From positions 1-64,000 of IMG/VR virus record IMGVR_UViG_3300035034_000127: 64,000 nt of DNA. One strand, written 5' to 3'. The DNA comes from a virus. Lineage: Duplodnaviria; Caudoviricetes. This document shows positions 2,507-35,000 of the stretch, piece after piece. The notes under the pieces are model-generated. The model made no database searches, was not told the DNA's origin, and saw only the letters and a program-made list of their open reading frames with translations. Position 1 is the first letter of the stretch. Each line of letters starts with the position of its first letter. The translations under genes were made by a program, and so were the position numbers.

Positions 2507-3886
2507 ATGGCCCTACGTTTACGACGCGGCACCGAAGCACAACGATTATCAATAACGCCAGAAGAAGGCGAATTGATATACACCACAGATGAAAAAGCTT
2601 TATGGATAGGTGATAGTGACTCTACTCAAGGCGGTACACTAGTTACTGGCACTGGTGGTTCATCTCGACTAGACCAACTTTTTGACGTTGATAGTGCGTC
2701 ATTTGTAAACGGTGGTGTACTAAGTTATAGCAATGGCTTCTGGAGTAGTACGCTGCTTCCACTTGCACAATTAGCTGATGTTGAGCTAACTAGCCTTGCT
2801 GACAATCAAATTTTAATGTGGAACGAATCTGCAGAACAGTGGAGTGGCTCGTTTGTGACTCTATCTCAGCTGGCCGACGTCAACCTAGGCGCAGTTGCCG
2901 AAGGTGATATACTAGTATACGATGCAGGTACACTTAAATGGATATCTTCTAACGGGGACAGTTTAATAGGGTTGAATCAATTATCTAATGTAGATCTTGG
3001 CTCAGTTACCGACGGCGATTTATTAGGATATGATTCAGATACAAACCGATGGACTGCAACCACATTCAATGCTGCTGGACTAGTACCAGGCAATAGCTAT
3101 AACATAGGTCTGACAGCAGATGATGACTCACCGCTTGTTGACTCTGCAACTAAGACACACTACGGCAGCTTCTACGGAGGACTGTACTCCGATGATGGAC
3201 TAGTGCTAATAAACAGTAATACTGGAATTGCATCTACTTCTGCTGGTGATACTCTGATAGACTTTACTACCGGTGAATTCACAGGTACACTAACAGGAGA
3301 TGTTGACGGTGATGTAACAGGCAATGTATTTGGTAGTGACTCTTCTCTATTAGTAGACGGTGTCAACAGTGAGCTAACAGGTCTAGTAACAGGCGATGTT
3401 TCGACATCTTTCCTAGAAGTTAGCAAAGACAATACTATTGCAGATCAGGCTGCAATAGTATCATTTAACGGAATATCAGGAACGTACATTCCGTTTGTTG
3501 AAGTTAATAGTACAGCAGGTACTATCGTAGCTCCAGTTGATCAGATTGCAGGAGCCGGCGTTGGTGGCTATCGAATTAATACTACTATCTCAGGCACAAA
3601 TAAAACAATAACCGCTTTAATTAGTACACTAGCGTCTGATGCAGATACTAGCACTGTTAATCCTAAAGCAATCACTCAACTAGCAGTTGGAGGTAATAAC
3701 AGCCTTTCTTTCTTTAACTTTAACGGAAACGGAATATTCAGTGTACCTACTGCAATTAAGACCGGAGTATTTGTTGATGCTACAGACAGAGATGCCGCAG
3801 TTATCACTCCAGAAGCAGGAACTATTGTATTAACCGGAACAACATTCCAGGGATATAACGGTACTAATTGGGTCGACTTAAACTAA
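2507..3886 (+). CDS. Virion fibre/appendage protein with Mtd_N-like N-terminal attachment domain
   Basis: N-terminus LRRGT...P.EGELIYTTDEK.LWIGD typical of phage fibre anchor domains; Gly/Ser/Thr/Asp-rich; internal repeats; C-terminal FQGYNGTNWVDL; late promoter upstream. Confidence 0.7.
   Translation: MALRLRRGTEAQRLSITPEEGELIYTTDEKALWIGDSDSTQGGTLVTGTGGSSRLDQLFDVDSASFVNGGVLSYSNGFWSSTLLPLAQLADVELTSLADNQILMWNESAEQWSGSFVTLSQLADVNLGAVAEGDILVYDAGTLKWISSNGDSLIGLNQLSNVDLGSVTDGDLLGYDSDTNRWTATTFNAAGLVPGNSYNIGLTADDDSPLVDSATKTHYGSFYGGLYSDDGLVLINSNTGIASTSAGDTLIDFTTGEFTGTLTGDVDGDVTGNVFGSDSSLLVDGVNSELTGLVTGDVSTSFLEVSKDNTIADQAAIVSFNGISGTYIPFVEVNSTAGTIVAPVDQIAGAGVGGYRINTTISGTNKTITALISTLASDADTSTVNPKAITQLAVGGNNSLSFFNFNGNGIFSVPTAIKTGVFVDATDRDAAVITPEAGTIVLTGTTFQGYNGTNWVDLN
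2669..3058 (+). repeat. Four ~33-aa protein repeats L.QL.DV......G..L.Y......W
   Basis: LDQLFDV...VLSYSNGFW; LAQLADV...ILMWNESAEQW; LSQLADV...ILVYDAGTLKW; LNQLSNV...LLGYDSDTNRW. Confidence 0.8.
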
Positions 3887-3896
3887 TACCAAAGTT

Positions 3897-3955
3897 TCAT
3901 TAATGCTACTCCTTACTAATATAAATAAGATTATTAAAGGATATAGCATTAATGA
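3897..3955 (+). promoter_or_regulatory. Hairpin sequestering RBS and start codon, with late promoter TATAAATA (3920-3927) at the loop
   Basis: TCATTAATGCTA (3897-3908) is the exact reverse complement of TAGCATTAATGA (3944-3955, includes ATG 3952); TCCTT (3910-3914) pairs with AAGGA (3937-3941). Confidence 0.8.
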
Positions 3956-4758
3956 TAAAAGGTATAAACAACACTCCGTATTTTAATCTTGAATCTCACG
4001 TTGATATGTCAACGTTTGAAAATCTTCAACCAGAGATAATCAGAGGGATCTCTGAAGCAAGGCACTGTGCCAAAGAAGGTACATGGATGAGGCCGGGCTT
4101 TGACCAGAGCCAAGGAAGTTATAAGTGGCACTGGAAACCTATATTCCAGGCTCTAGACGAATATCTTGCACTACCAGACAACAACCCTATTAAGCAAGGA
4201 GGGTGGGATCTGTACTGCAATATCAAAGACCACGAAACACGTAATAAGTTTACTCGATACCTCAAATTAGCACTAGGTGCATACGATCCTTATACTTACT
4301 ATTTCTTATGGGAAGAGGGTTCGTGGGACGACAGAACTGCACTTCGTCAGCTTACTCCAGAAGCACAATACTTTCCTAACGTAGTTAATTGGGTAGAAAG
4401 TATGATCACTAATAATATATTTGAACATGTGGGCAGAGTAATTTTCTTTGTATGTGAGCACGGAGGTTATCCTTTTGAACATCGTGACCTCGATGGCAAT
4501 AAAGGAATGGATCAAACATATAGCCCTCATCGTAACGAGTTTATTCACATACGTCCTAACACTAAGAAAGCGTTTTACCTTTGGGATCCTGAGAAGAAAA
4601 ATAAGGTATACATAAACGCACAAGCCGCATGGTGGAATGACCAAGACTGGCACGGCGGCGAAATGATTATGGAACAGAGTTATGGTCTAAGAATTGACGG
4701 AAAGTTCACCCAAGAGTTTAGAACAAAGCTGGGTTTATCGCACTTGGAGAATTACTAA
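3952..4758 (+). CDS. Putative 2OG-Fe(II) oxygenase (DSBH fold)
   Basis: HxD (EHRD), distal His (DWHGG) and downstream Arg (GLRID). Confidence 0.6.
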   Translation: MIKGINNTPYFNLESHVDMSTFENLQPEIIRGISEARHCAKEGTWMRPGFDQSQGSYKWHWKPIFQALDEYLALPDNNPIKQGGWDLYCNIKDHETRNKFTRYLKLALGAYDPYTYYFLWEEGSWDDRTALRQLTPEAQYFPNVVNWVESMITNNIFEHVGRVIFFVCEHGGYPFEHRDLDGNKGMDQTYSPHRNEFIHIRPNTKKAFYLWDPEKKNKVYINAQAAWWNDQDWHGGEMIMEQSYGLRIDGKFTQEFRTKLGLSHLENY

Positions 4759-5304
4759 TTGAAGTATGTAGGAAACTTTATAGACAAAGTGCCAGACGGC
4801 CTAATAGAAACACTGCTTACTGAAGACGGTGAAATTACTCCCGTTTACCAGCCAGACAAGTGGCAGGGTAGTCCTGAAATTGAAGCTGCTCTCAAACAAG
4901 TCGAAGATGCAGGATATCCTGCGCTAGACTACTACTTTCATCAGTACACTGATAATACAAAATGCATGCAGTCGTTCGTCGACGATCTCAAGTGGTTAAA
5001 ACTTGACGGCGTTGTGCCTAGAAGGTTTGATCGTCACCATTGGTGGATTGTTAAATATAATCCTGGAGATATGCAGCCTATGCATGTTGATCCGCATGTT
5101 CGCGACGCAAAAGAGTGTTTGCGTTATACTATGATGCTAACTGACTTTGCTGAAGGGCACATACTAACGCACGACGATTTTATGCTAACTGATTACAAAG
5201 CAGGCGATTTATTTTTATGGGAGGACTACTATTGTTATCATGGCGCAGTTAACATTGGATACACCCCCCGCATATCTTTACAAGTGAGCTTCTATAACAA
5301 ATGA
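4759..5304 (+). CDS. Putative 2OG-Fe(II) oxygenase
   Basis: PMHVD ... YHGAVNIGYTPRISLQV: HxD...H triad plus RxS. Confidence 0.75.
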   Translation: MKYVGNFIDKVPDGLIETLLTEDGEITPVYQPDKWQGSPEIEAALKQVEDAGYPALDYYFHQYTDNTKCMQSFVDDLKWLKLDGVVPRRFDRHHWWIVKYNPGDMQPMHVDPHVRDAKECLRYTMMLTDFAEGHILTHDDFMLTDYKAGDLFLWEDYYCYHGAVNIGYTPRISLQVSFYNK

Positions 5305-5882
5305 AATATATCGGAAACTGCAAGGAATGGATTCAACCCTGGTGGATCGAAAGAATATTAAGCACCGACGGAGATATCTCGCCGCTGCACCAACCACAAA
5401 ATCAAAACGGCGAGCTGCCTGAACAGCAGGAACTTTATAAAAACTTCTGTAGCGCTGGGTTCGACAAACGAAAGTTTTACGTAAATATGTATACTCAGAA
5501 TAAGACTAAAGATATTTTAGACTTTAAAGTTGAGGCGCCGGAACTTATTGACATGACTGGAAAAGTTTGGAAGTGGTGGTTTATTAAAACTATGCCTGGT
5601 CAATTGTCTCATTGGCATTTTGATCCTCACACAGTGTATTATAAAGATTCAGAGAGGTACTGGATTGCGTTACACGACTACGAACCTGGACAGATATTTA
5701 CGTGGAAAGGTGGGAAACTATTAACTGATTTTATTGCAGGCGATATTTTTAAATTTGACAAGCCGCACATGATGCATGGTACGGCTAATATAAGTATGAA
5801 TCCCAGATACAGTTTTCAGTGCACTGTGCACAAGCCCGAGAAGGTCAGTCTATATAACAAGAAGTATTATACTATAGATTAA
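5301..5882 (+). CDS. Putative 2OG-Fe(II) oxygenase (paralogue of upstream gene)
   Basis: WHFDPH ... MHGTANISMNPRYSFQ; shares MKY.GN, LTD..AGD.F with 4759-5304. Confidence 0.75.
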   Translation: MKYIGNCKEWIQPWWIERILSTDGDISPLHQPQNQNGELPEQQELYKNFCSAGFDKRKFYVNMYTQNKTKDILDFKVEAPELIDMTGKVWKWWFIKTMPGQLSHWHFDPHTVYYKDSERYWIALHDYEPGQIFTWKGGKLLTDFIAGDIFKFDKPHMMHGTANISMNPRYSFQCTVHKPEKVSLYNKKYYTID

Positions 5883-6409
5883 GAATAAGCTAAAAAATTA
5901 TACTGATACTTAGGAACCAACCCTACATTAGCTCCTGCATGCCAAGCACGGTAATCGTTCCATTCATAGATATTACCGTTTGCTTGGTTGTAGAAACATT
6001 CGTTCTCAACTATGCTAATATGCCCAACTGCTGGTTCGCCTATAAAACAAACAAATCGTCGTAGTTTTCCAAGTTTAAGATATTCTTCTTCGTTGTAGTC
6101 AATGTCGTAATGCCACGGAGCAGTGTAACCTGGATCAACGCGACTAATCCACGATCTAATGTGAGTAACGCCTATAATATTCTCAAACTGTTTTTCGACA
6201 TTGTAGCCATAGTCAGTTGCGTAATAGTTAGTCCACTTTATAGAATCTTGATTATACCCTGCTGCATCCCACATATTAAATAATCTTTCGTATTTTAATC
6301 CAGTAAGAACTGTTCGGTCAAGTATAATTTCTTTACCTGGTAGTTCCGAAATTTTGTTTATTATTGAGCCCCAGCCAGGATCATAATTTGTTACGTATCT
6401 ACAAGTCAT
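5879..6409 (-). CDS. Putative 2OG-Fe(II) oxygenase
   Basis: PGYTAPWHYD ... WHAGANVGLVPKY. Confidence 0.72.
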   Translation of the reverse strand: MTCRYVTNYDPGWGSIINKISELPGKEIILDRTVLTGLKYERLFNMWDAAGYNQDSIKWTNYYATDYGYNVEKQFENIIGVTHIRSWISRVDPGYTAPWHYDIDYNEEEYLKLGKLRRFVCFIGEPAVGHISIVENECFYNQANGNIYEWNDYRAWHAGANVGLVPKYQYNFLAYS

Positions 6410-6464: not shown

Positions 6465-6472
6465 GGAATATC

Positions 6473-7168
6473 ATGGAATACTACTATAATCAAAAGTTAA
6501 ACGAGCCGCCGTGGCGTAACAACCTCGTATATACTAGTCTTATTAATAAAGATCATACTATTTTTTGTCAATGGTTTCATAACGATTCAGACTATCATAA
6601 GGGCCAAAACGAAGTCATAGACCAATGCTTAATGGATGAAAAATGGAACAGAGAAGTAAAGTATCTTTCGATTATGCAGCAAGAGTACCCACATCTAGTT
6701 CCTGAAGTAATTAGCATAGATCACAAAGAAAGAAAGGTCCTTCTTAAAATTGACGGTCCAGATTTATGGCAACGTAGTTTAGCTCAAGACGAATGCTCAT
6801 TTGATAAGATACTGCCTAATTGGGAATCCCAAATGCTAGAGATTGTACAGGCACACAAGGACCTAGGATTTTACAAGTTTTCGATGCATCCAAACAGTTA
6901 TTTTATCGTAGACGGGCAACTGAAAAGCATTAACTATTTTTTTGTGTACGCAGCGTCTGAGAAGGTTGTACGCATCAAAGACTTCATTAGCCACATTAGC
7001 CACAACCGTAGAACAGATTTAATAGCATATTCAGAAAAACTAGGCATAGACTGGCAGGAAGAAACACCGTTAACTAAAATACAGCAGCTAGCGTTTGACA
7101 GTTTTCGTAGTAACTACCCTAATGAATTTATTGATGCTGCCCAGGAGATATACCAGTGTACGAAGTAG
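6473..7168 (+). CDS. Protein-kinase-like fold protein with non-canonical active site
   Basis: REVKYL (alphaC-like), VPEVISID, GFYKFSMHPNSYFIVDGQLKSINYF matching the spacing of G..HRDLKPxN...LK..DFG but without the Asp residues. Confidence 0.55.
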   Translation: MEYYYNQKLNEPPWRNNLVYTSLINKDHTIFCQWFHNDSDYHKGQNEVIDQCLMDEKWNREVKYLSIMQQEYPHLVPEVISIDHKERKVLLKIDGPDLWQRSLAQDECSFDKILPNWESQMLEIVQAHKDLGFYKFSMHPNSYFIVDGQLKSINYFFVYAASEKVVRIKDFISHISHNRRTDLIAYSEKLGIDWQEETPLTKIQQLAFDSFRSNYPNEFIDAAQEIYQCTK

Positions 7169-7713
7169 TTCAGTGGTCCTCCAAACTTGATCTAGCTGAA
7201 TTTTATAAAGAAGCTGATACTAGGGGATTTGTAAACAACGCTAGTCAAAAAGTTATGATCGATTGTTTTGCTAACGAACGTAAGTGGAATGCGTGGATTT
7301 TGTATAAAGACAGTAAAGCAATTGGTTCTGTTGCTGCCCATAGTTTTGACGACGTTATGGGACAAGACAGTTATCGTATATTAACAAGAGTATGCACATT
7401 TGGCGAAGCAAGGAAAGCAAAAGGTCTAACAACCGCAAAGAGATTATGCGGTGAGCATCAAAATCTCACAGACCAGTTTCTTCTGCCTAAGTGCATAGAA
7501 TGGGCTGGTCGAGAAAACTTATACGCAACATCAAATGCCAACACCGCAGCGAGTCAGCGTCTAGTACATTCTATTTATTTTCCTACTTTAGAAAAAATCG
7601 GAGTAGTAACTAGGATAAAAAACGTTCACTATCGCCATACTGACCAAACAGTATGGCAAATTAATGTAGACGAGTTTGAGGAGAACCTAGCTAAGTATCC
7701 TAGGTGGGTTTAA
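7156..7713 (+). CDS. Putative GNAT-fold acyltransferase
   Basis: WILYKDSKAIGSVAAH...YRILTRVC...LYATSN...ASQRL pattern resembles GNAT strand order and the NxxS motif. Confidence 0.45.
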   Translation: MYEVVQWSSKLDLAEFYKEADTRGFVNNASQKVMIDCFANERKWNAWILYKDSKAIGSVAAHSFDDVMGQDSYRILTRVCTFGEARKAKGLTTAKRLCGEHQNLTDQFLLPKCIEWAGRENLYATSNANTAASQRLVHSIYFPTLEKIGVVTRIKNVHYRHTDQTVWQINVDEFEENLAKYPRWV

Positions 7714-8407
7714 AAATCTTATCATACATATTAGACAGCACTTCGTTTGGCCATTCTATATGTGTAGAAATTGAACGCTTACAGAACTTTTCTAAGTCTA
7801 GTTTGTCTTCGTCAATTGCTTCGTCAAATCGGTGTCCTGAGTTTGTACCCATTAATCCCTTAATATCTTTAAGGTACATGTACGGAAACTCTTTGCCCGC
7901 AGTTGCATAAAAGTCAAACGTCTTAAGAACGCCGTTACTTATGAAATAACAATGCGGGTATAAACTAACTTTATAATATCCTGAATCTATAATATCCTGT
8001 AATATTCTTAACATCTGCTCTTCCCAGTTTGGTAGAACGTCGACTATGTTTCTTCCAGAATAAATGATATGGTTAAGCGTTTCGCCGCCCCATTCGATAA
8101 ATATCTTCTTAGTGTTATAATCTATTTCGACAATATTTGGTGCCCACAGCTTATCTTGAAATAGCATTAAGTATTTTACTTCTCGATAAAAAACGTAATC
8201 AACTAATTCTTTAGTATAGTCTGGTCGCTCAGGTAACCATTGTGCTAGGTCGGTAGTCTGGTATGCATTTGTGTGATCAAAGTGCATACATAGTACATCA
8301 TTTTCTTTATTTGCTAAAGGAGTATAAACCATATTAGTTCCGGCCTTCTCCATATCATACGACTTGTACTTATATACAGGATCCCATGTTGAGGTATCAA
8401 TACTCAT
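7700..8407 (-). CDS. Protein-kinase-like fold protein (paralogue of 6473-7168)
   Basis: Shares N.VYT.L.NK, REVKYL, LPNWE.QML.I.Q; GYYKVSLYPHCYFISNGVLKTFDFY. Confidence 0.6.
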   Translation of the reverse strand: MSIDTSTWDPVYKYKSYDMEKAGTNMVYTPLANKENDVLCMHFDHTNAYQTTDLAQWLPERPDYTKELVDYVFYREVKYLMLFQDKLWAPNIVEIDYNTKKIFIEWGGETLNHIIYSGRNIVDVLPNWEEQMLRILQDIIDSGYYKVSLYPHCYFISNGVLKTFDFYATAGKEFPYMYLKDIKGLMGTNSGHRFDEAIDEDKLDLEKFCKRSISTHIEWPNEVLSNMYDKIFKPT

Positions 8408-9068
8408 TAGTCTGTCCTAATCTAACTTCGAATTGTTTAGGTACAATTTGCAATTCATCAATGCAACTGTACTCTATAAAAAATGCTACGCCTGCTGTAG
8501 TAGTTCTAAAATTTGTTATAATGTGCCTTTTATTAGAACAATTAAGCCACGAGCTAACACTGTTGTCGAAAAGATATCGACAATTTACACCCTGCACTAA
8601 GATTTCGACTTCCACAGGATTCATCAGAGTGGCATTATTAAGTAATTTCCTAACTACTAGCTGTACTCGGTTAAACTCGCCAAATACCGCTGCTGAATGA
8701 CATATACTAGTGTCCATTAAATACCACTTCCCGTCAACGATAGACGGGTACATCTTTTTACTTTCAAGGTCTATTAAAAATGCCTCATCGCTTCGAACAG
8801 TCAAATGATATCGATCGTCGATGTCAGCGTGACGAAGATAAGACGTGCCGTTTTGCATGATAATAACTCTAGCTTCGCCTATGTTGCTAGGTAAGCTGTG
8901 CAGTGCAGTTTCAAATACAGTGCCGTTAAACTCAGGCTTTATTGCCCACGGATCATAAAAAAAATCACCAGTAGGATAATTAATTGAAATTTTAGCAGGA
9001 TCGTCGCCCATTATGTCAAGAGATTGTGCGATCGATATAGGAATAAAAAAGTTAGTAGCTGATATCAT
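8397..9068 (-). CDS. Putative 2OG-Fe(II) oxygenase, Asp/Asn beta-hydroxylase-like, with C-terminal extension
   Basis: GEARVI...YLRHADIDDRYHL...DGKWYLMDT..CHSAAVFGEFNRVQLVV. Confidence 0.72.
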   Translation of the reverse strand: MISATNFFIPISIAQSLDIMGDDPAKISINYPTGDFFYDPWAIKPEFNGTVFETALHSLPSNIGEARVIIMQNGTSYLRHADIDDRYHLTVRSDEAFLIDLESKKMYPSIVDGKWYLMDTSICHSAAVFGEFNRVQLVVRKLLNNATLMNPVEVEILVQGVNCRYLFDNSVSSWLNCSNKRHIITNFRTTTAGVAFFIEYSCIDELQIVPKQFEVRLGQTNEY

Positions 9069-9107: not shown

Positions 9108-9845
9108 ATGAAACCGTACCACTATATTAATATCAACGGAGTTCGACTGCCTGTATCTAACGAATGGAAGAAGATAGGCATAAGCGTTAGCGGAGGAGCT
9201 GATAGTGCGCTGCTTGCTTATTTAATTTGTTTGGACACTACAGCAGAAATACATATTATAAGTCAAGTAAGAGGATGGAAAACAAAACCTTGGCAAAGAC
9301 ATAATAGTATAGAAGTATACGAGTGGCTGGTTCAACATTTCCCGCATTTAACATTTGTAAGACACGAAGGATTTATACCGCCAGACCTTGAGTGGGGTGA
9401 TAAAGGTCCTAATATTATAGACGAGTACAACAAGTTAAAAAGTGGTAATCAAATTATTCTTCGATCACACAATGAGTTTATAATTCACAAAGAAAAATTA
9501 GACTCGTGGTTTGCTGCTGTAAATAAGAATCCAGAGGTACCATTCCAAGGTGCACTTGCTGATAGAGACGAAGGGCACCTTCCGTTAATAATGGAACACA
9601 TGGGTATTACAATTTGCCATCCTTTTGTGTATACTATGAAAGACTGGATTATTAAACAATATTATAACTACGATATCCTAGACCTTCTTAATATTACAAG
9701 AAGCTGTGAAGGAGACCTAAACGATTACCCCGAGGTATTTGGAGACCTAGATTATCAAACATACATCCCAGGACAATACGTTCCAGAATGTCAACAATGC
9801 TTCTGGTGCAAAGAAAGACAGTGGGCTATTGAACAAGTCAAATAG
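9108..9845 (+). CDS. QueC-like PP-loop ATP pyrophosphatase
   Basis: ISVSGGADSALL PP-loop; C-terminal HPF...K..I...TRSCE...C.QCFWC.ER resembling the QueC Zn site. Confidence 0.7.
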   Translation: MKPYHYININGVRLPVSNEWKKIGISVSGGADSALLAYLICLDTTAEIHIISQVRGWKTKPWQRHNSIEVYEWLVQHFPHLTFVRHEGFIPPDLEWGDKGPNIIDEYNKLKSGNQIILRSHNEFIIHKEKLDSWFAAVNKNPEVPFQGALADRDEGHLPLIMEHMGITICHPFVYTMKDWIIKQYYNYDILDLLNITRSCEGDLNDYPEVFGDLDYQTYIPGQYVPECQQCFWCKERQWAIEQVK

Positions 9846-11100
9846 TTGTACTTTTTGTATGCATCCTTTTACAGGATTAGCCACCCGCGAAGACGGCGCT
9901 ATTAAGGTGTGCTGTCGTTCTCAGCCCATTGGGTGGATACAAGAAGAAACCTTAGAACAAGCGTGGAACAACGACAAGATGAGAGAGGTTCGTAAGCAAG
10001 TATTAAACAACGAGCGTCCTGACGTATGTAAGCCGTGCTTTGATCTCGAAGATCAGGGGGTCGAGAGCTTACGACAACGCCACATAGCAGGTGTTATACC
10101 CGAAGCAAGGGCCAACTTATACCCTGACGCACTGGACGGTTTGGAGGACGACTATACTATGCCCTTCGAATTCCCTACTATAGAAATAAAAATCAACAAC
10201 TTATGCAATCTCAAGTGTAGAATGTGTAATCCACTGGACAGCACTAGCTGGAAAGACTGGGATCAGGTCACTGAGTTTTACAAAAAGGAAAACAACTACT
10301 TGATTCCCACAGTAGAAAAGCTAGTAGATAAGCCAGGACAGTACATAGGTCCGTTTGACAATACAGCAAACTGGTGGGATAGCTTCGAAAAGCTGCTACC
10401 TTTCTTTAGACGAGTAGAATTTGCTGGTGGGGAACCGTTAATGGACCCTAATCACTACAAGATTCTTGACATGCTAGCGCCGTACGGTGAGAACATTGAA
10501 ATAAAATACGCAACAAACGGCACAAAGCTGGGCATAGGCAAGGGCCGGACTATACAGGAGTACTGGCCCAAGTTTAGAAGTGTAGCTGTAAACGTGAGCA
10601 TAGACGGTATACACGATGTATACGAATATATCCGCGGCAACGGCAAATTTAACGAAGTAGTCGACAATATCAGAATTATGCAATCTATCCCTACAGTGAG
10701 CAGAATTGTTGGGGCATTTACTGTACAAGCAAATAACATCATGCAAATTGACAAAGTGATTGACTATTTCTTAAACGAACTAGATATTATCTTTTACAGC
10801 CACCGGGTAACCTATCCAATGGCGTTGAGTGCGCAAGTATTGCCGCCCGCATTAAAACAGGAGGTCGTTAACAAGCTAGAAATAATGAAAACAGAAGTGT
10901 TGACCTATCCTAAAATTCAATCAAGTGAGTTGCTAAAGAAAGTAACGCTGCAACAGATTCAAGACAACATTAACTTCTTACAAGCAAAGTGTATGTTCGA
11001 ATCACACTGGCAAGACTGCATTGCGTTTAACAAAAAACTAGATGCTACACGAGGTCAAGACTTTTTGGCAGCTAACCCAAGGTTTAGACCCTACGCATGA
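9829..11100 (+). CDS. Radical SAM enzyme with N-terminal Twitch/SPASM-like Cys domain
   Basis: CNLKCRMC (CxxxCxxC), FAGGEP, TNGT, VSIDG; N-terminal C.HPF...DG.IKVCC...CKPC. Confidence 0.9.
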   Translation: MNKSNSCTFCMHPFTGLATREDGAIKVCCRSQPIGWIQEETLEQAWNNDKMREVRKQVLNNERPDVCKPCFDLEDQGVESLRQRHIAGVIPEARANLYPDALDGLEDDYTMPFEFPTIEIKINNLCNLKCRMCNPLDSTSWKDWDQVTEFYKKENNYLIPTVEKLVDKPGQYIGPFDNTANWWDSFEKLLPFFRRVEFAGGEPLMDPNHYKILDMLAPYGENIEIKYATNGTKLGIGKGRTIQEYWPKFRSVAVNVSIDGIHDVYEYIRGNGKFNEVVDNIRIMQSIPTVSRIVGAFTVQANNIMQIDKVIDYFLNELDIIFYSHRVTYPMALSAQVLPPALKQEVVNKLEIMKTEVLTYPKIQSSELLKKVTLQQIQDNINFLQAKCMFESHWQDCIAFNKKLDATRGQDFLAANPRFRPYA

Positions 11101-11981
11101 AACACGTGACCAGCAAGTGGCCTCACCAAGACAGTATTAAGGTAGAATGGAATCTAGGAAAACGCTGTAACCTAGATTGCGGCTACTGCCCTGCTGAAAT
11201 CCACGATAACTTTAGCCCACACACTAATATTGAGATACTAAAACGCACAGTAGATCACCTTGCGGCTCTAGGCAAGCCGGTGCGTATAAGCTTCACAGGG
11301 GGCGAGCCTTGTGTGCATCCTCAAATAGACGAACTGCTACGCTACGCAAAAGAGAGAGTAGATTGGATTAATGTGACCACTAATGCATCCAGGAAAGCAG
11401 AGTGGTATATTAAACAACCTGTAAACCATTATGTGTTCAGTCTTCACTTTGACAATAAAACCGTAGATCGAATGATTAGGCAAATTATGCAAGTCAAAAC
11501 AACCTCAATCATTCCGTTCCATGTAAATATCATGGCGCACCACGAACACATGGACCGTGTTAGATCTGCTGTTAGATTATTTAGTTTGTTTGATATACAC
11601 TACGCTGTACGACGCATACGATGGACTGAAAAACACGACTGGTTTGACGACTTACGATACGTTCAAGAAGATCTAGAATGGTTGCTAGAAAACGATGCCA
11701 CGGCAAAATCCAACGTAATTATCGACCATACAACTGAGTTACATGCTAACGATGTTATTAAGAAACATCTTAATCAATTTAAAGGGTGGCAGTGTAACGC
11801 CGGTGTTGAGAGCTTGATGATAAACTGGGACGGTGAAGTGCATAGAGCAACATGCAGAGTAGGTGGCAGTTTAGGTAACATTTATACTGGAACATTTACG
11901 CAACCGCCCGAAGCTATAATTTGCACTAGGCAATGGTGTACTTGTGCCGCAGATATTCCTTTAACAAAGACCAAAATATGA
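11097..11981 (+). CDS. Radical SAM enzyme with C-terminal SPASM/Twitch-like domain
   Basis: CNLDCGYC, FTGGEP, TTNA; CNAG...DGEVHRATC...LGNI...CTRQWCTC. Confidence 0.9.
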   Translation: MKHVTSKWPHQDSIKVEWNLGKRCNLDCGYCPAEIHDNFSPHTNIEILKRTVDHLAALGKPVRISFTGGEPCVHPQIDELLRYAKERVDWINVTTNASRKAEWYIKQPVNHYVFSLHFDNKTVDRMIRQIMQVKTTSIIPFHVNIMAHHEHMDRVRSAVRLFSLFDIHYAVRRIRWTEKHDWFDDLRYVQEDLEWLLENDATAKSNVIIDHTTELHANDVIKKHLNQFKGWQCNAGVESLMINWDGEVHRATCRVGGSLGNIYTGTFTQPPEAIICTRQWCTCAADIPLTKTKI

Positions 11982-13036
11982 TAAAAACAGAAGCAATAAC
12001 ATTAGCTGGCCCAGAAAAAATGATGGTGACCTGGGACACGGGTAGACGATGTAACTTTGATTGCACCTACTGCGAAGCTACTAGACACAACACGTATAGC
12101 CCCTATCATTCCTACGAAGAATTATTAACTACACTAGAATTTGTTAAAGAGTACACTAGTATATACGACACAGAAAAACAAGGCGTAAACGTAGATTTTA
12201 CCGGCGGAGAACCTACTGCTAATCCTAACTTTTGGAAACTGGCCAGACATATAAAAGATCACGAACCTCAGTTAAGTTGCGGATTAACAACCAACGGAGT
12301 ATGGAATCCTAGGCGAACTGAAGAGATAGTAGAATTGTTTCACGGGCTAACGGTTAGCTACCATCCCGAAGGCGGAGCAAAGGCCAAGGCTCACGTTATA
12401 GAAAATATAAAACGCCTTCACAAATCCGGTATTTGGTTGCAAATAAATGTAATGATGCACGTTGATCACTTTGAAGAAGTACAACGAGTGTGTCGCTTAC
12501 TAACAGATCTTGGTATAACGCATTTTCCAAGGCCAATCGGAGACGGAACGGTTGAAAGAAGTGGATGGTTTAAGGATACTGACGGATCTATGCGCAGAAC
12601 TAGTCATAGTTACAGTGAAGATCAACAAGAGTGGTTCTTTGACTATATTGGCCAGCCTAATCCTGCAAAACAAAAGAAGGAAGGATCTTCAATAGGAAGA
12701 GGCTGCTGCGGTGGAAGATGCATGACAGGAAAAGTTGACGGCGAGTGGATTCCAGTAACTCACGTTGACAATAATTTTAAAGGATGGTTTTGCTCTGTTA
12801 ATAAATTCTTTATGCATATTGACCAACATGATAAATTAGTCTATCATCATCAAACTTGTCAATCACTTCACGGTGGCAAAAGAGGACCGCTAGGCAGTTT
12901 AAACAACACTGCTGCCATTCTGGACTACGCCAAAAATGCAGTAAACGGTAGTCCTATAGTATGCCCGAACAATCGTTGCGGGTGCGGAACTTGCATTCCT
13001 AAAGCTAAACATATAGAAGTGTTCAACTTGCTTTAA
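11978..13036 (+). CDS. Radical SAM enzyme with Cys-rich C-terminal domain
   Basis: CNFDCTYC, FTGGEP, TTNG; GCCGGRC and CPNNRCGCGTC. Start placed at the ATGA overlap at 11978. Confidence 0.9.
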   Translation: MIKTEAITLAGPEKMMVTWDTGRRCNFDCTYCEATRHNTYSPYHSYEELLTTLEFVKEYTSIYDTEKQGVNVDFTGGEPTANPNFWKLARHIKDHEPQLSCGLTTNGVWNPRRTEEIVELFHGLTVSYHPEGGAKAKAHVIENIKRLHKSGIWLQINVMMHVDHFEEVQRVCRLLTDLGITHFPRPIGDGTVERSGWFKDTDGSMRRTSHSYSEDQQEWFFDYIGQPNPAKQKKEGSSIGRGCCGGRCMTGKVDGEWIPVTHVDNNFKGWFCSVNKFFMHIDQHDKLVYHHQTCQSLHGGKRGPLGSLNNTAAILDYAKNAVNGSPIVCPNNRCGCGTCIPKAKHIEVFNLL

Positions 13037-14442
13037 AGCAAGTGTGCTAACTCCGGAAATACTATCTTAGCTGAGTTGCCTCGTATTGCATCCAGTTTAG
13101 TCACATATTCTTTAAAGCCAGGCAACAGATAGCTGTTGTCTTGAGCGTCCATATGTTTTAATACCGCTTCCCATCGCTTCCATCCATAAGGGTTAATTTT
13201 CCAAAAGTCGTCGTCTTGACGATAGTTTTCCCAAAGCCACATTTTAAACTCTGCAAAAATTCGATGTACTTCTAGTTTGTCTTCTAGCGGAAGTATCTGT
13301 ATGCTAAGAAACGTAGGAATATACAGTAGGTGCATGTTCACAAGTCCGCCTCCCATCTGTACTCCACCCGGAACTGTTCCTTCGTTTAGCTTCTTAAAGT
13401 TCGAACGTATCTTCCATTTCATGAACTCTGGCAAATGTTTGATGTTAAAAATCTGTATTGCTGTTGCTAGACTAGTCTGAATATTATCAGGTGAATCGTC
13501 TAACATATGAAGCGTCTTCTCAACTTGTGCAAAGTCTGTAGGAAAGCGAATGTATTCGTCGCGTGGACCACAGGCATCCATGCTGATAGCAAACTTAACC
13601 TTTTTAAACTTCTTCCATAACTCTAACAATTCGTTGTCGACTAGCAGTCCGTTTGAGTTATAACGCAGTAGTATCTTATCTTGGTAGCCTTGTCTTATAA
13701 TTTCTTGAATAAACATTTTGTGTTCTTTAATCATAAGCGGTTCACCGCCAGCAAAGTATACTTGTTTAAGGTTTGGTACCTGTTTGTACATCTCTTTCCA
13801 GAAAGTATCTTTTTGATGCCACTTATTGTCAAAATTATCTTTGTCGAATTGGAGTTGTTGTTTGACATTATCGTCTTCAATTTGAGGTAATAACTTTTGC
13901 CAATCTTTAACCCACTTACTAGAATCATGAGGACTACACATTACACATTTAATGTTACAAGTATGTCCGAGTCTTAGGTCAAGGTATTGCAGTTCTTCTG
14001 GTACTGTTCCGTCTTGTTTAGTTTGCTCTATTAGATAGGGGATGTCAACATCATCGCGGTGCCAAGTCATTGTCTCCCATATTCGTTTAGACACAACTCC
14101 TTGACTTTCTTCTTTAAAGCACTTAGTACAACTTGCAGGAACTTCGCCTTTGAGCATAGTTGTACGCACACTTTTCATGTAATCGTTATTCCATGCGGCC
14201 ATTGGAGTGTCCTTGCCAAAGTTTGCAGGTTTGCCGTCTTCCATTTTAACCAAGCCCACTTCGTGGTCATTGCCTGCGCCGCTGGCGTTTGCACTGCAAC
14301 ACAAGCGCATATCTCCGTTAGGACGAGTGGCGAAGTGAATCCACGGCAGTACGCAGTAACTTTGCGAACCTGAAACTGTTTCTATTTCTCGTTGATATTT
14401 GCCTAGTGCACTGTCTTTGTCATTGTACCATTTGTTAGTCAT
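13033..14442 (-). CDS. Radical SAM enzyme with N-terminal Twitch/SPASM-like domain (paralogue of 9829-11100)
   Basis: CNIKCVMC, FAGGEPLM; N-terminal CVLPW...NGDMRLCC...AWNND.M..VR...CTKC. Confidence 0.9.
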   Translation of the reverse strand: MTNKWYNDKDSALGKYQREIETVSGSQSYCVLPWIHFATRPNGDMRLCCSANASGAGNDHEVGLVKMEDGKPANFGKDTPMAAWNNDYMKSVRTTMLKGEVPASCTKCFKEESQGVVSKRIWETMTWHRDDVDIPYLIEQTKQDGTVPEELQYLDLRLGHTCNIKCVMCSPHDSSKWVKDWQKLLPQIEDDNVKQQLQFDKDNFDNKWHQKDTFWKEMYKQVPNLKQVYFAGGEPLMIKEHKMFIQEIIRQGYQDKILLRYNSNGLLVDNELLELWKKFKKVKFAISMDACGPRDEYIRFPTDFAQVEKTLHMLDDSPDNIQTSLATAIQIFNIKHLPEFMKWKIRSNFKKLNEGTVPGGVQMGGGLVNMHLLYIPTFLSIQILPLEDKLEVHRIFAEFKMWLWENYRQDDDFWKINPYGWKRWEAVLKHMDAQDNSYLLPGFKEYVTKLDAIRGNSAKIVFPELAHLL

Positions 14443-15514
14443 TGTTTAATATAGTTACCTTAATAAATTGATCTTTTGGCTTAGGAAGCTCTGCTACGCT
14501 TCCGCAGGTTCTCGCACATGTTACTAACTTGTTTTGCGTCCAATAGTATTCCCAAGCAGTCTGCCAACTATCAGAGCTAACAATGTCGTTAACTGATCGA
14601 TTCAGGGCGTTAGTATCTCCCAGTGTTTGTTTTAACTCTCGATACTGCTGTAGCATGTGAGTTCTTATCTCTCTAGTGATGTCATTTGCAGGTGCGTAGT
14701 TGTAAGGTGCGCTTGCAAGAAAACAGCACGGAAAAACATTTCTATACGCATCAATGTATATCTCTTTAGTGTGCTGAACGTAACAATTAATTTCAGAGTC
14801 GCCTAATACTTTTCTATAATTCTTAACAGTATCTTCTGAAATAAAAGGAAGCTCCGAGGAAGAAGGCGGCTCAATGAAGTACTGCGTTTCTCCTTTATTG
14901 TCGTATACCGGAAATTTAGGACTTCCTACAAATCTAGAACTGTTCTTCTCAGTAAACAGCGCAAATCCGGTCTCTTTGGCCCGGCTTCTGGCTTCTTCTA
15001 CTTGATGCTCGTTATGTTTAAATTTTATAAAACACCATTCGGCATTACCGCCGGCGCCGATAAATGCAATAGCATTTTTAATAATACGATTGAAATCAGT
15101 ACCAATACGATAAAGATGATGTGTATCTTCTAGCCCATCTAACGCAAAGATTACTTTATGTGTCCTAGGTAGCACTTTGGCTAACTGTGCCCACCATGCT
15201 GTAGTTCTAGCACTTCCGTTTGTGTGTATACGAATATTAAGACTAGGATTTGTTTGGGCGGCGTAATCAATCATATCAATAAGATCCTTGTTAATAATAG
15301 GATCACCAAAGTTGCCGCACATATAGAAACCTTTAATTTGGTCCAGAACTCCGGGCGTGGCTATCTTCTTAAAATCGTCAACTGACCATTCCTGATTTTT
15401 TATTAACGGATTATCTTGGCCGCCATGATGGTTTCTTGAGCACATCGGACAAGCTGCTTGACACTTGTTGGTTATCTCAAAGTGGATATCTTCGAGCTCT
15501 GTAAATTTAAACAA
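14435..15514 (-). CDS. Radical SAM enzyme with C-terminal Twitch-like domain
   Basis: CQAACPMC, CGNFGDP, HTNG, FALDG; C-terminal C...VFPCC...CARTC. Confidence 0.9.
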   Translation of the reverse strand: MFKFTELEDIHFEITNKCQAACPMCSRNHHGGQDNPLIKNQEWSVDDFKKIATPGVLDQIKGFYMCGNFGDPIINKDLIDMIDYAAQTNPSLNIRIHTNGSARTTAWWAQLAKVLPRTHKVIFALDGLEDTHHLYRIGTDFNRIIKNAIAFIGAGGNAEWCFIKFKHNEHQVEEARSRAKETGFALFTEKNSSRFVGSPKFPVYDNKGETQYFIEPPSSSELPFISEDTVKNYRKVLGDSEINCYVQHTKEIYIDAYRNVFPCCFLASAPYNYAPANDITREIRTHMLQQYRELKQTLGDTNALNRSVNDIVSSDSWQTAWEYYWTQNKLVTCARTCGSVAELPKPKDQFIKVTILNND

Positions 15515-16109
15515 TTTTCCTCCCTATCAACATAAATCTTGTGTACAGTGGTGTTTCTAGTTCGTCGCGGTGTATAACTTCTATTTCCGAATGTTCTTCA
15601 AATTCTTGTAGTGTTGAGTGGCACCGAACGTGCTCTGCACAATCAAAATAGTTGTTACTCTGCAGAACAACAAGCGCATTCGTCGGAACTAAGCTTAACC
15701 ACTGATCATATTGTACTTGTGTTAAGTGCTCACAAATAGTGTTAATTACTACGTCACCTCTATATATCTGCCGAGTTAAATCGCCAGTAATTGCTCGGAA
15801 CCTTCCCTGCATCTCTTGTCTTTTATTTACCGTGCAGGCTGTTTCCTCACAGTAAGGATCGATATCGTAAGAATGTATTTCTCTAATTTGCAGATTGCTA
15901 TTAAATAAAATACTAGCAAGCACGCCGTTCCAGCCACCGTGAATGACATATTTCGATGCACTTGTAGGGGCATACCTAGTAAGTGCTTCTACTAACCATA
16001 CTTTCGATCGTACTTGTCCCTTCCAAAAGCTCTCAAGAGTTCTGTATCTACTACTCGAGTTGCGCACCGCATCCATCCAAAATAATACGTCTTCGATTTC
16101 TACTTTCAT
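15507..16109 (-). CDS. Putative class I SAM-dependent methyltransferase
   Basis: VIHGGWNG glycine loop, SYDID acidic motif, TGDL, VVINT.CEH. Start placed at ATGA overlap (MKVEIED). Confidence 0.7.
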   Translation of the reverse strand: MKVEIEDVLFWMDAVRNSSSRYRTLESFWKGQVRSKVWLVEALTRYAPTSASKYVIHGGWNGVLASILFNSNLQIREIHSYDIDPYCEETACTVNKRQEMQGRFRAITGDLTRQIYRGDVVINTICEHLTQVQYDQWLSLVPTNALVVLQSNNYFDCAEHVRCHSTLQEFEEHSEIEVIHRDELETPLYTRFMLIGRKIV

Positions 16110-17092
16110 TGTTTTACCTTGGGTATTTTTGAATCTGCAGAACTTACGCAAGTCGGAGTAATACAAGTAGCTGGACTTGTAAATAAGCTAAATCCGTCTT
16201 GGATAGTTCCTAGTGGAACGTCGTGGCAACTATAGGCTCGTTTAACTTCGCCACCGGGCTCGCGTATAATGCAACTTTGAAAACCTGCGTTACAGTTCCA
16301 TCCTTGAAACTTATTAAAACCAAATGCATTAAATCGTTCTGCTTGATCTATATAATAAGTATTGCCTTGTCTATCTTCCAAGCGAACTTGCGGAGCGACC
16401 TCTCCGTGGTACTCTTGAGGGAATCCAATTTGAAGAAGTTGTTTTTGTGCGTCAGTATAGCCCTCTACCACTTCAGTAGCCGTATCGTTGCTCTGTGGCT
16501 TTAGTGTGACGTTTATACCACGTTCCGCAAACCTTGCACATCTCTCATAATACTCGTCAAACAGTTCAGGAACCATTACTTGGTTAATAGTGAGATAAGT
16601 GTTGTTGTCAAGTAGTTGCAAACACTTGTCTCCAAACTCTTGTTCACGAGCAAACTCTGCATGAAAGCTAGCTGTAATACTGCGACGAGCAAGAGGTGCA
16701 GTTACTTCTAGCCATTTGTTCCACCATTTACTACCTGGGCTTAGATTCGTAGTCATATGCAGACTTTGATACTGGGCAAAGTCGTCGTTTACATAGTGCT
16801 CTATTAACTGGCCAAATTTCTTGTACGCTGTTGGCTCACCGCCACTAAACGAGAAATGAAACTCTGTAAATCCGTTGGCTCTAGCTTGACGTTTGATCTC
16901 TGTTATTGTGTTTTTGTATAGTTCTAGCTGACGGTGGTCCGGAACACTTGTTCGCGCATAAGGCCAGCAGTAAGAACAATTATAGTTGCAAAATCTAGCC
17001 AATATCCAAGATACAGCAAACAGTTTGTTATCTAACATTGTTTGCTGTCCGAAACTAGTTATGTCTTCGAACGGAATATCTTGATAGCTCAT
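16106..17092 (-). CDS. Radical SAM enzyme with C-terminal SPASM/Twitch-like domain
   Basis: CNYNCSYC, FSGGEP, TTNL; NKFQGWNCNAG...SC...LGTI...CITPTC. Confidence 0.9.
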   Translation of the reverse strand: MSYQDIPFEDITSFGQQTMLDNKLFAVSWILARFCNYNCSYCWPYARTSVPDHRQLELYKNTITEIKRQARANGFTEFHFSFSGGEPTAYKKFGQLIEHYVNDDFAQYQSLHMTTNLSPGSKWWNKWLEVTAPLARRSITASFHAEFAREQEFGDKCLQLLDNNTYLTINQVMVPELFDEYYERCARFAERGINVTLKPQSNDTATEVVEGYTDAQKQLLQIGFPQEYHGEVAPQVRLEDRQGNTYYIDQAERFNAFGFNKFQGWNCNAGFQSCIIREPGGEVKRAYSCHDVPLGTIQDGFSLFTSPATCITPTCVSSADSKIPKVKQ

Positions 17093-32040: not shown

Positions 32041-32048
32041 TATTTATT
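32041..32048 (-). promoter_or_regulatory. Late-promoter motif AATAAATA overlapping the stop of the giant gene
   Basis: Plus-strand TATTTATT 32041-32048. Confidence 0.55.
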
Positions 32049-35000
32049 CTGGCTGCGCCGAAGTTCCTGCACGTAAGAAGTTTGCTATTGGTGTGTTAGT
32101 TGTTGCAAGAGATTCGCCGGGTTTAGCCCACGTATTTCCAACTTTTTTAACTACTGTAACTCTTACATTTTCAGCCGGTACTGTAGTTAGCACAATTTCT
32201 CCGTCCACAATTTCAAAGTCTGCAGGTATACTAATATCGCCGTCCGGACTATTTAATGCAACTGTTGCATCAAAAACCTGCGTTGCTTGCTTGCGCAATC
32301 TAGTGCCAGCTACAAATACTTCAATTTCGTTAACTGACGATATAGTAAAGCCAATTGCAAACGATCCAGTAACGCCATCTGTCGTAAAATTCTGTACAAT
32401 AGTTCTGTCTTTATACGGAATTGTTTTGTCACTGTTTTGATCGTACACTTTTGTTCCTACAGCATGCTGTTGGGCAGTGCCTGTGCCCAGCGTACCACGA
32501 CGCAATTGTCGGAGTGTGTTACCGTCTTTAACAAAATATTCAATTCTTTCTTTGTCAATAAAGATAATTCCAGGGAGATTTCTCCCTTTATCCGGCACTG
32601 CTAGGTTCGCCCCGTCTTGAACTTCGATCCTAAGATCATAACTATTTAAAGGTTGAGCAAGGGTTGTTACTGCACTGTTTAGACGCTTAAAGTGTGTTCT
32701 GTTGAGTATGTCTTTAAACTGGCGATATGCAAACGTTGACACATTTGTTGCCGCGGAGACATCTCTATTATAAACTCTCAAATCTAGCGCGTCCATTACC
32801 TGTCCAGATACTAGCTCCTCTGGTCCTCCGCTGGTTGTTGGAGTTATGAAGCTGTCACCGTCGACAATAATTTCCTCTGGGTTAATTCCTCGCGCAGACG
32901 AGTACGCAAGATTGCCACCTATCAATGCTTGGTCATAACTTTCATCATCAGGCGCTACACTACCGTCGCTAGTGGATTTTCTAATTATCAACACATCCTC
33001 GTTGACCAACGTAATTCCTAGATCAGCTAGCTCAACTACAGAAGTCGAACCGTCACCGAAGATACTTGATGTTACTGCATTTTGGTTAACCTGTTCTGCG
33101 GTTCCGTATTCTGGATCGTCTAAACGAATACCGTTCTTGTAGATGTTATAAATAACGCCATCTTCAAGAGCCTCTCTTAATTCAACAGCAGTTGTTGACC
33201 CATCTGCTACAAATACTTCATCTTCAAAGTTAGTACCATCAGTGTCCCATGTATCAGTATACCATCCTTCGGTATCCCACCCTGTTTCTATTTCAAAGCC
33301 CAGCCCGCTAACTTCTACTCCGCCATAATCAATCCCTGTCATTACCTGTGCTAGTTCACTACCTAACATTCCACTTAATGGGTTATATGCAAACTTAATT
33401 CTGTCTGCTGCTGACAACATACTTATTGGTCTGTAATACTCTATTCGTACATCAGACTGGTTAGCAGGAGGCTTAGTAAATATTATTCTTCCTTGCTGGT
33501 AAGTGTAGCCATTGGATATCTGTTGAGTGCCTGGCCCTGCTGCTACATTACCATTACCGTAGTTAAAATCTTCAGCTAATGTATCAATAGTCGGAGAGTA
33601 GGTTATATTAGTGTATGAATACTGGCTTCTCAACTGCTGCACTTCATTAACATATACTTTAACTTTTCTGTTATCAAGATCCATTGGCCATTTCAAGTTG
33701 TAGTTAATATCTACATTTGACCCTACAAAATTAGCAACTTCTGCCAGTTCTTCTATAGTGTATTGTCCAGAAGTTCTATCAAACTTAATCTTAACAGTAG
33801 GTGTACGTACAACACCGTCGCCTAGTATAGCTGTTGCAGATGCCCTAATTCCAACGTCACTCTGTGGAACATCAATTATTACAGTTGGCATATTGATATA
33901 CCCAACGCCAGGCGACGTAACTTTGATAGCAGTAATTTTGCCATAGCCGATAAATGCCTTAGCAGTGGCCTGCTTTGCAGATGCTCCTTCAAGTTTAATC
34001 TCAGGAGCAATGGTATAACCACTACCTGGGTTTTGTATCCTAACCTCAGTAACTGTGTATCCAATGTTGTCCTTCCAGTATTTCCTTGGGTAAGAGTCTG
34101 TATTAGCCCCTGCATCAATTAGTTCACCGTTACTGATAAACGCTTTGCTTGTAACAATTCGTTTAGTCAGGATGTCGTATTGTGGTGCTAAATCAAAGTC
34201 AGTAACAGCACTTTGAGTATCGTCGATACTAGTGTAGGAACTTATAAACTCTCGTACTTTAGAAGAATAAGGTTTTACTTCGTTTACATAGGCTTGATAA
34301 CTAGCTAGCTTATCGTTTTCAAAGTTTACTTTTTGATCAAGGTTACCTACATTATGCTTAACGTTGATAAACGCTGACTTAAACATCCAGTCAACTGCCG
34401 GCTGCTCAGATAGCACGTATCTAAGGCTAGCAAAGAACAACTGGTTGTATTCAACTGCTAACTCTGCAATGAATAGGTCGTCACGTATAACTTCAAAAAT
34501 TATTCTTAGTTCTTTTGCAATAACACTATCGTAAAAGAAACTGTCGTAACTTCTGCTGTCAAAGCCAACTGCATTTTTCTCAACATTATATAAGCTTTCA
34601 TTAAAGCTTATAGTTCCTGCTTGACGTCCGATAGTATCGTAATTAATCGTAAAATCTTCAGTTTCTTCGTTGGCAATCTTTTTAAGCAGTAACCAGCCAC
34701 CGCTGCTTATACTTTTAGCTTTTACTACATTGCCAATAGTGTCACGTAGGCCTCCTAGCAAGTAAGTGCCCTCGATCTCAAAATCAATGTCAGTAAACTG
34801 ATTAAACCCTTCTGCATACCAATCTCTGTAGTCCCAGAACCTGGACACGTCAAACGCTTGAATCTGCGTTCTAAACCAGTTTCTCTCAATTTCGTTCCAC
34901 GAATATATTGCCCATTTGCCATTTAGATTATCGTCATTATTTACTAACACACTGTAGCGTCTTGGCAGCAGCACTGTTGCATCACCGTAGCCACTGCCTT

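Follow-up and report, generated by a model that had tools for sequence, protein, structure and literature searches.

Between positions 6,473 and 8,407 the viral record IMGVR_UViG_3300035034_000127 (Duplodnaviria; Caudoviricetes) encodes two paralogous proteins, here called A and B, for which a protein kinase-like (PKL) fold is indicated below, as well as a protein of GNAT fold whose gene lies between them (Table 1). The window that we analyzed comprises the first 64 kb of this 72-kb record, which is about 20% complete according to CheckV. From the letters and the open reading frames (ORFs) alone, the locus had been read as a pair of diverged kinase-like proteins that face each other around a GNAT-like gene and share a rewired catalytic loop. 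This original prediction speculated that the pair might perform a novel transferase chemistry or represent an active/inactive heterodimer. We analyzed the locus together with 80 related loci obtained from a scan of viral contigs.

A and B are paralogues, as had been proposed. They share 30% identity across 178 columns in BLASTP (E 4e-23), and a search of the record revealed no further copies of the family in the entire 72 kb. The middle gene uses a GTG start that matches the start of its homologues and converges with B, with which it overlaps by 14 nucleotides (nt). The notion of two paralogues facing each other around a GNAT-like gene therefore holds for the window, and the GNAT fold was confirmed, but the layout is peculiar to this record. 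As a rule, the genes of the 80 related loci are arranged as cupin-B-cupin, followed by further cupins and finally by A and the GNAT gene. The convergent arrangement of A-GNAT and B in the window is a local rearrangement.

We collected 29 relatives of B and 58 representatives of A among 1.84 billion cluster representatives. An AlphaFold2 model of B, built from a 31-row alignment, reached a mean predicted local distance difference test score (pLDDT) of 91.4 and a predicted template modelling score of 0.89. Comparison of this model with the PDB using Foldseek gave 229 matches at E<=1e-3, of which the top 50 are all kinases, and the list is headed by Ark1 (8yv5, E 1e-5), WbdD (4azt), TTK/Mps1, Bud32 (2vwb), PRPK (7szc) and RIO2. 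A second comparison, performed with VIA-align on 48,161 representative chains, agrees in that all 50 rows listed are kinases. The best match here is the pseudokinase domain of IRAK3 (Z 13.2, root-mean-square deviation 3.3, 187 of 235 residues), with active kinases tied to it within 1 Z. For RIO1 and RIO2 the scores are Z 12.2-12.3. A repeat of the structural comparison likewise gave kinases in all 50 top rows. In a library of viral structures, the best matches were small kinases encoded by giant viruses.

At the sequence level, A and B used as single queries gave nothing significant in Pfam, PHROGs, NCBIfam or the PDB sequences, and the kinase hidden Markov models of Pfam matched neither the two window proteins nor any of 48 B-family members when the threshold was relaxed to E<=1. 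Family profiles searched against the PDB sequences found the TTK kinase domain with an E-value of 8.6e-6 for the B family and, in the same register, of 1.1e-3 for the A family. The segments sGyyKvslyphcffi..lktfdf of the B family and lglykyslhPssyfvv..Lksinyf of the A family both align with hGivHsDLkPaNfli..lkliDfG of TTK/Mps1. The language-model feature neighbors of A and B include RIO1, Kdo/WaaP, APH and Pkinase clusters (0.96-0.97), which we regard as leads only. The kinase-like fold that had been anticipated, checked using AlphaFold2 and Foldseek, is thus confirmed for B at the level of the model, whose listed matches are kinases only. Because only B was folded, we infer the kinase fold of A from its paralogy to B and from the match of the A-family profile to TTK.

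Read from the sequence, the motifs are GFYKFSMHPNSYF ... SINYFF in A and GYYKVSLYPHCYF ... TFDFYA in B. Both profiles set YKxSxxP(N/H)(S/C)YF against the HxDxxxxN of TTK, and DFY of B and NYF of A against DFG, which is the register that had been read by eye. In the HMMER alignments, Lys146 of B and Lys135 of A fall on the His of HxD, Ser148 and Ser137 on the catalytic Asp, Tyr150 and His139 on the position of the gamma-phosphate Lys, Pro151 and Pro140 on the conserved Pro, His152 and Asn141 on the residue preceding the Mg-binding Asn, Cys153 and Ser142 on the Mg-binding Asn itself, Asp165 and Asn154 on the DFG Asp, and Glu76 and Glu61 on the alphaC Glu. We take the corresponding PKA residues to be D166 for the catalytic Asp, K168, E170, N171 for the Mg-binding Asn, D184 for the DFG Asp and E91 for the alphaC Glu.

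Conservation was assessed by pooling the ORFs of the 80 viral loci with database proteins of 180-260 residues. Following the removal of exact duplicates and of fragments shorter than 180 residues, 138 distinct sequences remained (108 B and 30 A), and the counts given below take in related and therefore non-independent sequences. The K146 position is Lys in 107 of 108 B sequences (Arg in one) and in all A sequences, the P151 position is Pro in 106/108 and 30/30, the alphaC Glu is kept in 107/108 and 30/30, and Y49 in 105/108 and 30/30. Of the K.S..P pattern that was expected to be conserved, Lys (137/138) and Pro (136/138) stood up, but the Ser is invariant in A only (30/30). In B the position of the catalytic Asp is taken by Ala (47), Ser (45), Thr (13) or Asn (3), and Asp is never found there in either subfamily. 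Because it varies in B, this Ser is not a catalytic residue that A and B share.

Other positions are conserved within each subfamily. Where kinases have the Mg-binding Asn, B carries Cys in 102 of 108 sequences (Ser in 3, Thr in 2, Tyr in 1) and A carries Ser throughout. The DFG Asp is Asp in 106 of 108 B sequences and Asn in 29 of 30 A sequences. Tyr150 is present in all B sequences and replaced by His in all A sequences, His152 in 106 B sequences with Ser (26) or Asn (4) in A, and Lys13 in 103 B sequences with Asn in every A sequence. Cys40 is found in 100 of 108 B sequences. In a set of 25 A sequences K135, S137, H139, P140, S142 and N154 are invariant. Thus, as judged from the alignments, A and B each keep an invariant cleft of their own, and A is the more degenerate copy of the two.

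The N-terminal landmarks of a kinase are lacking. The GxGxxG Gly-rich loop is absent from the first strands, which read TNMVYTPLANKEN in B and NNLVYTSLINKDH in A, and N25, Y28 and P30 of B are conserved where it would be located. The beta3 Lys was suggested to appear as FCQ/LCM. This motif lies on strand 38-42 (VLCMH) of the B model, which is plausibly beta3, but HMMER puts the beta3 strand of TTK at Y49-T52 of B instead, where T52 is variable. At the candidate position M41, B has Met in 96 and Lys in 6 of 108 sequences, and A has Gln in 22, Met in 4 and Lys in 3. There is no conserved Lys at either place, although the alphaC Glu is kept. The suggestion is therefore verified in part only, as the position itself, and with it the beta3 register, is uncertain. 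A hinge-like IEW-GGE segment is partly retained in B, with E109 in 73 of 108 sequences.

With a kinase fold from which the catalytic motifs are gone, A and B are pseudokinases by definition. Neither protein has the Gly-rich loop, a conserved beta3 Lys, the catalytic Asp or the Asn, and A is without the DFG Asp as well, which makes canonical phosphoryl transfer by either protein very unlikely as far as aligned sequences can tell. It is nevertheless conceivable that A and B are still kinases, for instance of a hydroxylated substrate or a sugar provided by the neighboring enzymes, with K13 or K146 standing in for the beta3 Lys and H152 serving as base. Such a role would suit the Kdo/WaaP, RIO1 and APH feature neighbors (leads, as said), the third rank of the sugar kinase WbdD in the Foldseek list and the presence of a UDP-glucose dehydrogenase gene just outside the enzyme island described below. 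Moreover, loss of the beta3 Lys can be compensated in some kinase families (Kannan et al., 2007; PMC1821047). However, catalytic Asp, Asn and Gly-rich loop have all disappeared together, A has in addition lost the DFG Asp (Asn in 29/30), and K13 is replaced by Asn in 30 of 30 A sequences. We consider activity as a kinase very improbable.

Loss of the canonical motifs from both copies might also be expected if A and B were decaying, functionless remnants of a kinase gene duplication. This is practically untenable: the ORFs are intact in 80 of 80 loci, 0 of 63 matches contain internal stops, and the near-invariant residues persist at identities as low as 25-30%. The ratio of nonsynonymous to synonymous substitution rates (dN/dS) has a median of 0.164 for B (range 0.047-0.337; 59 non-independent, moderately diverged pairs) and amounts to 0.148 for A, in effectively one independent comparison. 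Low dN/dS and near-invariant residues show that both copies are under purifying selection. Pseudogene decay of A and B was rejected on these grounds, and the earlier argument that the shared substitutions reflect selection rather than decay was borne out, with Lys and Pro of the loop nearly universal and dN/dS at about 0.15.

The A/B family is essentially viral and resides in uncultured T4-like aquatic phages. Searches with tblastn and blastn did not yield a match in 50,697 deposited phage genomes, and there was a single match across 185,579 bacterial and archaeal species represented by one genome each. This lone cellular match (JBDNIA010000261.1, 4,931 bases) is a 4.9-kb contig of a Crocinitomicaceae metagenome-assembled genome and probably represents a phage fragment binned with it. 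A was detected in 40 of the 80 loci, and a whole-contig search of the other 40 found an A-type gene in 23 more, at a distance of 6-17 kb from B. Both genes are therefore present in 63 of 80 contigs. The remaining 17 contigs extend downstream of B by at most 5,967 nt, so that no case of B without A can be demonstrated.

This co-occurrence, along with the greater degeneracy of A, is compatible with an obligate A/B heterodimer, in which B (with DFG Asp, His and Cys kept) would be the working subunit and A (Asn/Ser/Ser) the regulatory one. FAM20C and FAM20A form a paralogous kinase/pseudokinase pair to which such an arrangement can be likened. However, A and B are adjacent only in the window. They usually lie 2-17 kb apart in separate coupled units, cupin-B-cupin and A-GNAT, and the invariant cleft of A would be unexpected for a purely regulatory copy. 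Prediction of a B-A complex from two alignments gave scores of 0.01 and 0.00 (mark 0.32), which is no evidence either way. We regard the heterodimer as improbable.

The gene coupling points to different partners. A and B belong to an enzyme island whose gene content and order are strikingly constant over the 80 viral loci: radical SAM genes, a QueC-like PP-loop gene, an aspartyl/asparaginyl (Asp/Asn)-hydroxylase-like cupin, B, a small cupin, two to four cupin/2-oxoglutarate (2OG)-oxygenase-like genes, A and the middle gene. The hydroxylase-like cupin and B are consecutive on one strand in 65 loci, where the stop of the cupin gene overlaps the start of B by 4 nt (37 loci) or 8 nt (13 loci). A cupin lies downstream of B in 49 loci. 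In one lineage B is fused in frame to a cupin, as seen in P0061 (398 residues) and L021:5995-7191 (399 residues). The C-terminal 170 residues of P0061 are 38% identical to the small cupin of the window (E 9e-40). With only 57% identity between them, P0061 and L021:5995-7191 represent a conserved fusion and not an assembly slip. The three contigs that bear the second of these fusions (L021, L022 and L047) are identical at the DNA level and were counted once.

A is coupled to the middle gene, which follows it in 30 of 30 loci with sequence beyond A. The two genes overlap or abut in 28 of these loci, with a 13-nt overlap in 18, and are 756 and 2,779 nt apart in the other two. The assignment of the middle gene as GNAT-like was confirmed. 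For its AlphaFold2 model (pLDDT 90.9), Foldseek found 123 matches at E<=1e-3; those listed are GNAT acyltransferases without exception and include AAC(6') structures. VIA-align aligned the model to 1yre with Z 12.6 over 154 residues, and 50 of 50 listed rows are GNATs. GNATs possess a Q/RxxGxG/A loop after beta4 that accommodates the pyrophosphate of acyl-coenzyme A (acyl-CoA). In the middle-gene product, neither the length nor the sequence of the loop that follows strand 73-81 is constant, its pLDDT is 62-78, and H101, Q102, Q107 and F108 are invariant near it. As the CoA-pyrophosphate loop is variable and of low confidence, the acyl donor of this protein may be other than standard acyl-CoA. 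Further invariant residues of the protein are H62, R74, R78, C80 and H138.

Starting from the observed kinase fold, loss of catalytic residues, purifying selection, gene coupling and fusion, we tentatively favor the idea that A and B are non-phosphorylating partner subunits of the adjoining tailoring enzymes, a reading that we would place somewhat short of probable. Operon coupling to two classes of tailoring enzymes and the conserved B-cupin fusion are the reasons for this preference. According to this model, a kinase-fold family would have dropped phosphoryl transfer and retained a cleft that is remodelled yet strictly conserved. The partners of B would be the cupin (Asp/Asn-hydroxylase-like) oxygenases encoded on either side of it, and that of A would be the GNAT acyltransferase. 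The old nucleotide/substrate cleft might bind a common substrate or a nucleotide-type ligand, and might either present the bound ligand to the catalytic partner or gate that partner. Because B is coupled to cupins and A to the GNAT gene, the evidence points elsewhere than to the transferase or the heterodimer that had originally been envisaged.

Several points weigh against partner subunits. Physical complexes, ligand binding and an absence of catalysis in A and B are all things we infer. The roles of residues in A and B are putative, being assigned from register rather than from measured geometry. The B-cupin fusion is confined to one lineage with two diverged representatives. A search for longer relatives of A did not reveal an A-GNAT fusion, and the homologue search found no fused relatives of B or A above 405-412 residues; both results are weak evidence, and the B-cupin fusions of 398-399 residues, which were found by other routes, lie just under the length window of that search. 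Most importantly, the subfamily-specific invariant polar residues of the cleft (Y150 in 108, H152 in 106, C153 in 102, D165 in 106 and K13 in 103 of 108 B sequences; H139, S142 and S137 in 30 and N154 in 29 of 30 A sequences) would seem to resemble an active or ligand site more than a passive scaffold, and they fit a catalytic role equally well.

Such a catalytic role would make A and B atypical enzymes in which the kinase scaffold was re-tooled for a non-kinase reaction. Tyr150, His152, Cys153 and Asp165 of B could then make up a site for a metal or for a nucleophile/base, and A could be another version, free of metal and built from His139, Ser142 and Asn154. In support of this, near-invariant polar residues occupy the place where kinases hold Mg-ATP, C40 is widely conserved in B, A has an invariant set of its own, and the hinge-like IEW-GGE segment is partly retained. 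AMPylation by SelO and glutamylation by SidJ are precedents for other chemistry on PKL folds. On the other hand, A and B lack the beta3 Lys and the Asn/Asp metal pair, which the known atypical PKL enzymes need, B does not conserve a Ser where the catalytic Asp would be, a cofactor-binding motif was not found, and the chemistry cannot be deduced. All in all, we hold atypical enzymes to be the main alternative to partner subunits, though a rather unlikely one.

We also considered a more specific proposal along these lines, which appears unlikely. Here B would be a new kind of enzyme in which the Mg ligands Asn/Asp changed to Cys/Asp and, together with His152, Tyr150 and Cys40, might bind a transition metal or act as nucleophile. 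B would form a unit with the Fe/2OG-type cupin hydroxylases, A would be a second re-tooled version serving the GNAT, and both would take part in an undescribed phage pathway that tailors a product of the tail-fibre region. Partner subunits of the cupins and of the GNAT remain the interpretation we prefer.

The island that houses A and B extends from about 3952 to 17092 in the window and is summarized in Table 1.

Table 1. Genes of the enzyme island around A and B (positions in the window; aa, amino acids)
Feature	Position	Strand	Remarks
Island ORF	3952..4758	+	No match in Pfam or PHROG
2OG-Fe(II) oxygenase-like ORF	4759..5304	+	phrog_81, E 5.4e-5
Island ORF	5301..5882	+	No match in Pfam or PHROG
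Small cupin-like protein	5879..6409	-	176 aa; HxD...H signature, no family match
PKL-fold paralogue A	6473..7168	+	231 aa; loop YKFSMHPNSYF; NYF at DFG position
GNAT-fold middle gene	7156..7713	+	185 aa, GTG start; 13-nt overlap with the end of A
PKL-fold paralogue B	7700..8407	-	235 aa; loop YKVSLYPHCYF; DFY at DFG position
Aspartyl/asparaginyl beta-hydroxylase-like cupin	8397..9068	-	PF05118 (Asp_Arg_Hydrox), E 8e-5, 23.0 bits (cut-off 22.6); immediately upstream of B, stop overlapping the start of B
Rest of island	9108..17092		QueC-like PP-loop protein and six radical SAM genes (Pfam Radical_SAM, SPASM)
Radical SAM genes	9829..11100, 11097..11981, 11933..13036, 13033..14442, 14435..15514, 16106..17092		Six within 7.3 kb

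Homologues of the hydroxylase-like cupin upstream of B were found in 78 of 80 related loci. A homologue of the small cupin normally follows B; residues H100, D102 and H157 of this protein are invariant in 30 sequences, and its profile weakly matched a solved 'Beta-hydroxylase' (7v4o, E 0.05). The three ORFs at the left end of the island have homologues in 63, 76 and 71 of 80 loci, respectively. Two of the radical SAM genes are full-length matches to NCBIfam NF033640 (twitch domain-containing radical SAM protein; N-terminal twitch) with E-values of 7.3e-94 and 1.3e-112. A small protein with a Cys-His repeat tail, which might have been the substrate of such a radical SAM cassette, was sought in all six frames of the window and of 81 loci (the 80 viral loci and JBDNIA010000261.1) and was not found; either a substrate of this type does not apply here or it is encoded outside these loci. 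The sequence TATAAATA, which we take to be the T4 late-promoter motif, is located at 3920..3927 and precedes the start (3952) of the first gene in the island by 25 nt; it is not enriched in the window (4 observed versus 6.85 expected). Directly upstream of the island, an ORF of 459 aa (2507..3886, plus strand) carries an N-terminal Mtd_N (major tropism determinant) domain (PF18454, E 1e-6).

Around the island we found tail-fibre genes, a 4699-aa ORF, a baseplate hub/lysozyme gene and a T4-type late sigma factor. This setting corresponds to the 'host recognition cluster' described for T4-like pelagi- and cyanomyophages, and the portion of the respective paper available to us mentions radical SAM cassettes and an Asp/Asn hydroxylase and does not mention a kinase-like protein (Zaragoza-Solas et al., 2020; PMC7029224). 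The giant gene is a single ORF of 4,699 aa (32044..46143, minus strand) that adjoins the tail-fibre genes, and it may be the VrlC-type giant gene by which the host recognition cluster of related phages is bounded (PMC7029224). In the ORF assigned to the sigma factor (58064..59926, 620 aa), only residues 1-202 and 531-596 match the PHROG of T4-type late sigma factors, and Pfam gave no match. The middle part of this ORF, about 330 residues, is unexplained, and a homing/HNH endonuclease gene (59901..61646) follows directly. An insertion, either an intein or a mobile element, may be present within this sigma factor gene.

Kinase-fold proteins without kinase residues have repeatedly proved to catalyze unexpected reactions or to regulate partner enzymes. 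The A/B family is a fixed part of a large radical SAM/cupin island in abundant uncultured T4-like aquatic phages, and A and B offer two natural, differently rewired forms of one cleft, for which a GNAT (A) and a cupin (B) are clear candidate partners. These candidate partners make the product of the island, and the way it is made, approachable by ordinary expression, binding and structural experiments.

The literature that we searched did not contain a description of the A/B family or of its link to cupins, GNAT or radical SAM enzymes, nor a paper that joins phage, pseudokinase and radical SAM. A description that we can set beside the family concerns the viral HRK/CapK subfamilies, which are virus-specific, enriched in marine metagenomes and devoid of the N-terminal G-loop and VAIK, 'suggesting alternative functions' (Kannan et al., 2007; PMC1821047). 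The legend of the corresponding sequence logo has only the first two motifs missing; A and B also lack HxD..N, and the comparison is one of descriptions only. A and B probably represent a new virus-only PKL family that is recognizable by the loop K-x-[SA]-L-[YH]-P-[HSN]-[CS].

By fold and size, A and B are nearest to the RIO, Bud32 (PRPK), Ark1 and Kdo-type (Kdo/WaaP/WbdD) kinases, with which they share a compact two-lobed fold of about 170-260 residues without a long activation segment. Members of these families are active kinases or ATPases, and A and B differ from them in lacking the beta3 Lys, the catalytic Asp, the Asn and the Gly-rich loop. SelO and SidJ resemble A and B in having PKL folds that are considered not to phosphorylate. 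They retain the Lys and the Mg-binding residues for ATP, whereas in A and B the Asn is missing and no Lys is conserved at beta3. Neither SelO nor SidJ appeared as a sequence match or a specific structural match among the 50 rows listed in each of the Foldseek and VIA-align comparisons of B, which by itself decides nothing. The bifunctional AAC(6')-APH(2'') combines a GNAT and a kinase fold in one unit, as does the A-GNAT gene pair, but the kinase-fold protein A is without the phosphotransfer residues and, as noted, its fusion to the GNAT was not found. With pseudokinases such as IRAK3, STRADalpha, JAK JH2 and FAM20A, A and B share the kinase fold without catalytic motifs and the occurrence of paralogue pairs. 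They differ from these proteins in being phage-encoded, stand-alone proteins of 230 residues that belong to an enzyme island rather than to signalling pathways, and, in our judgement, the conservation of their cleft residues exceeds that usually seen in scaffolding pseudokinases.

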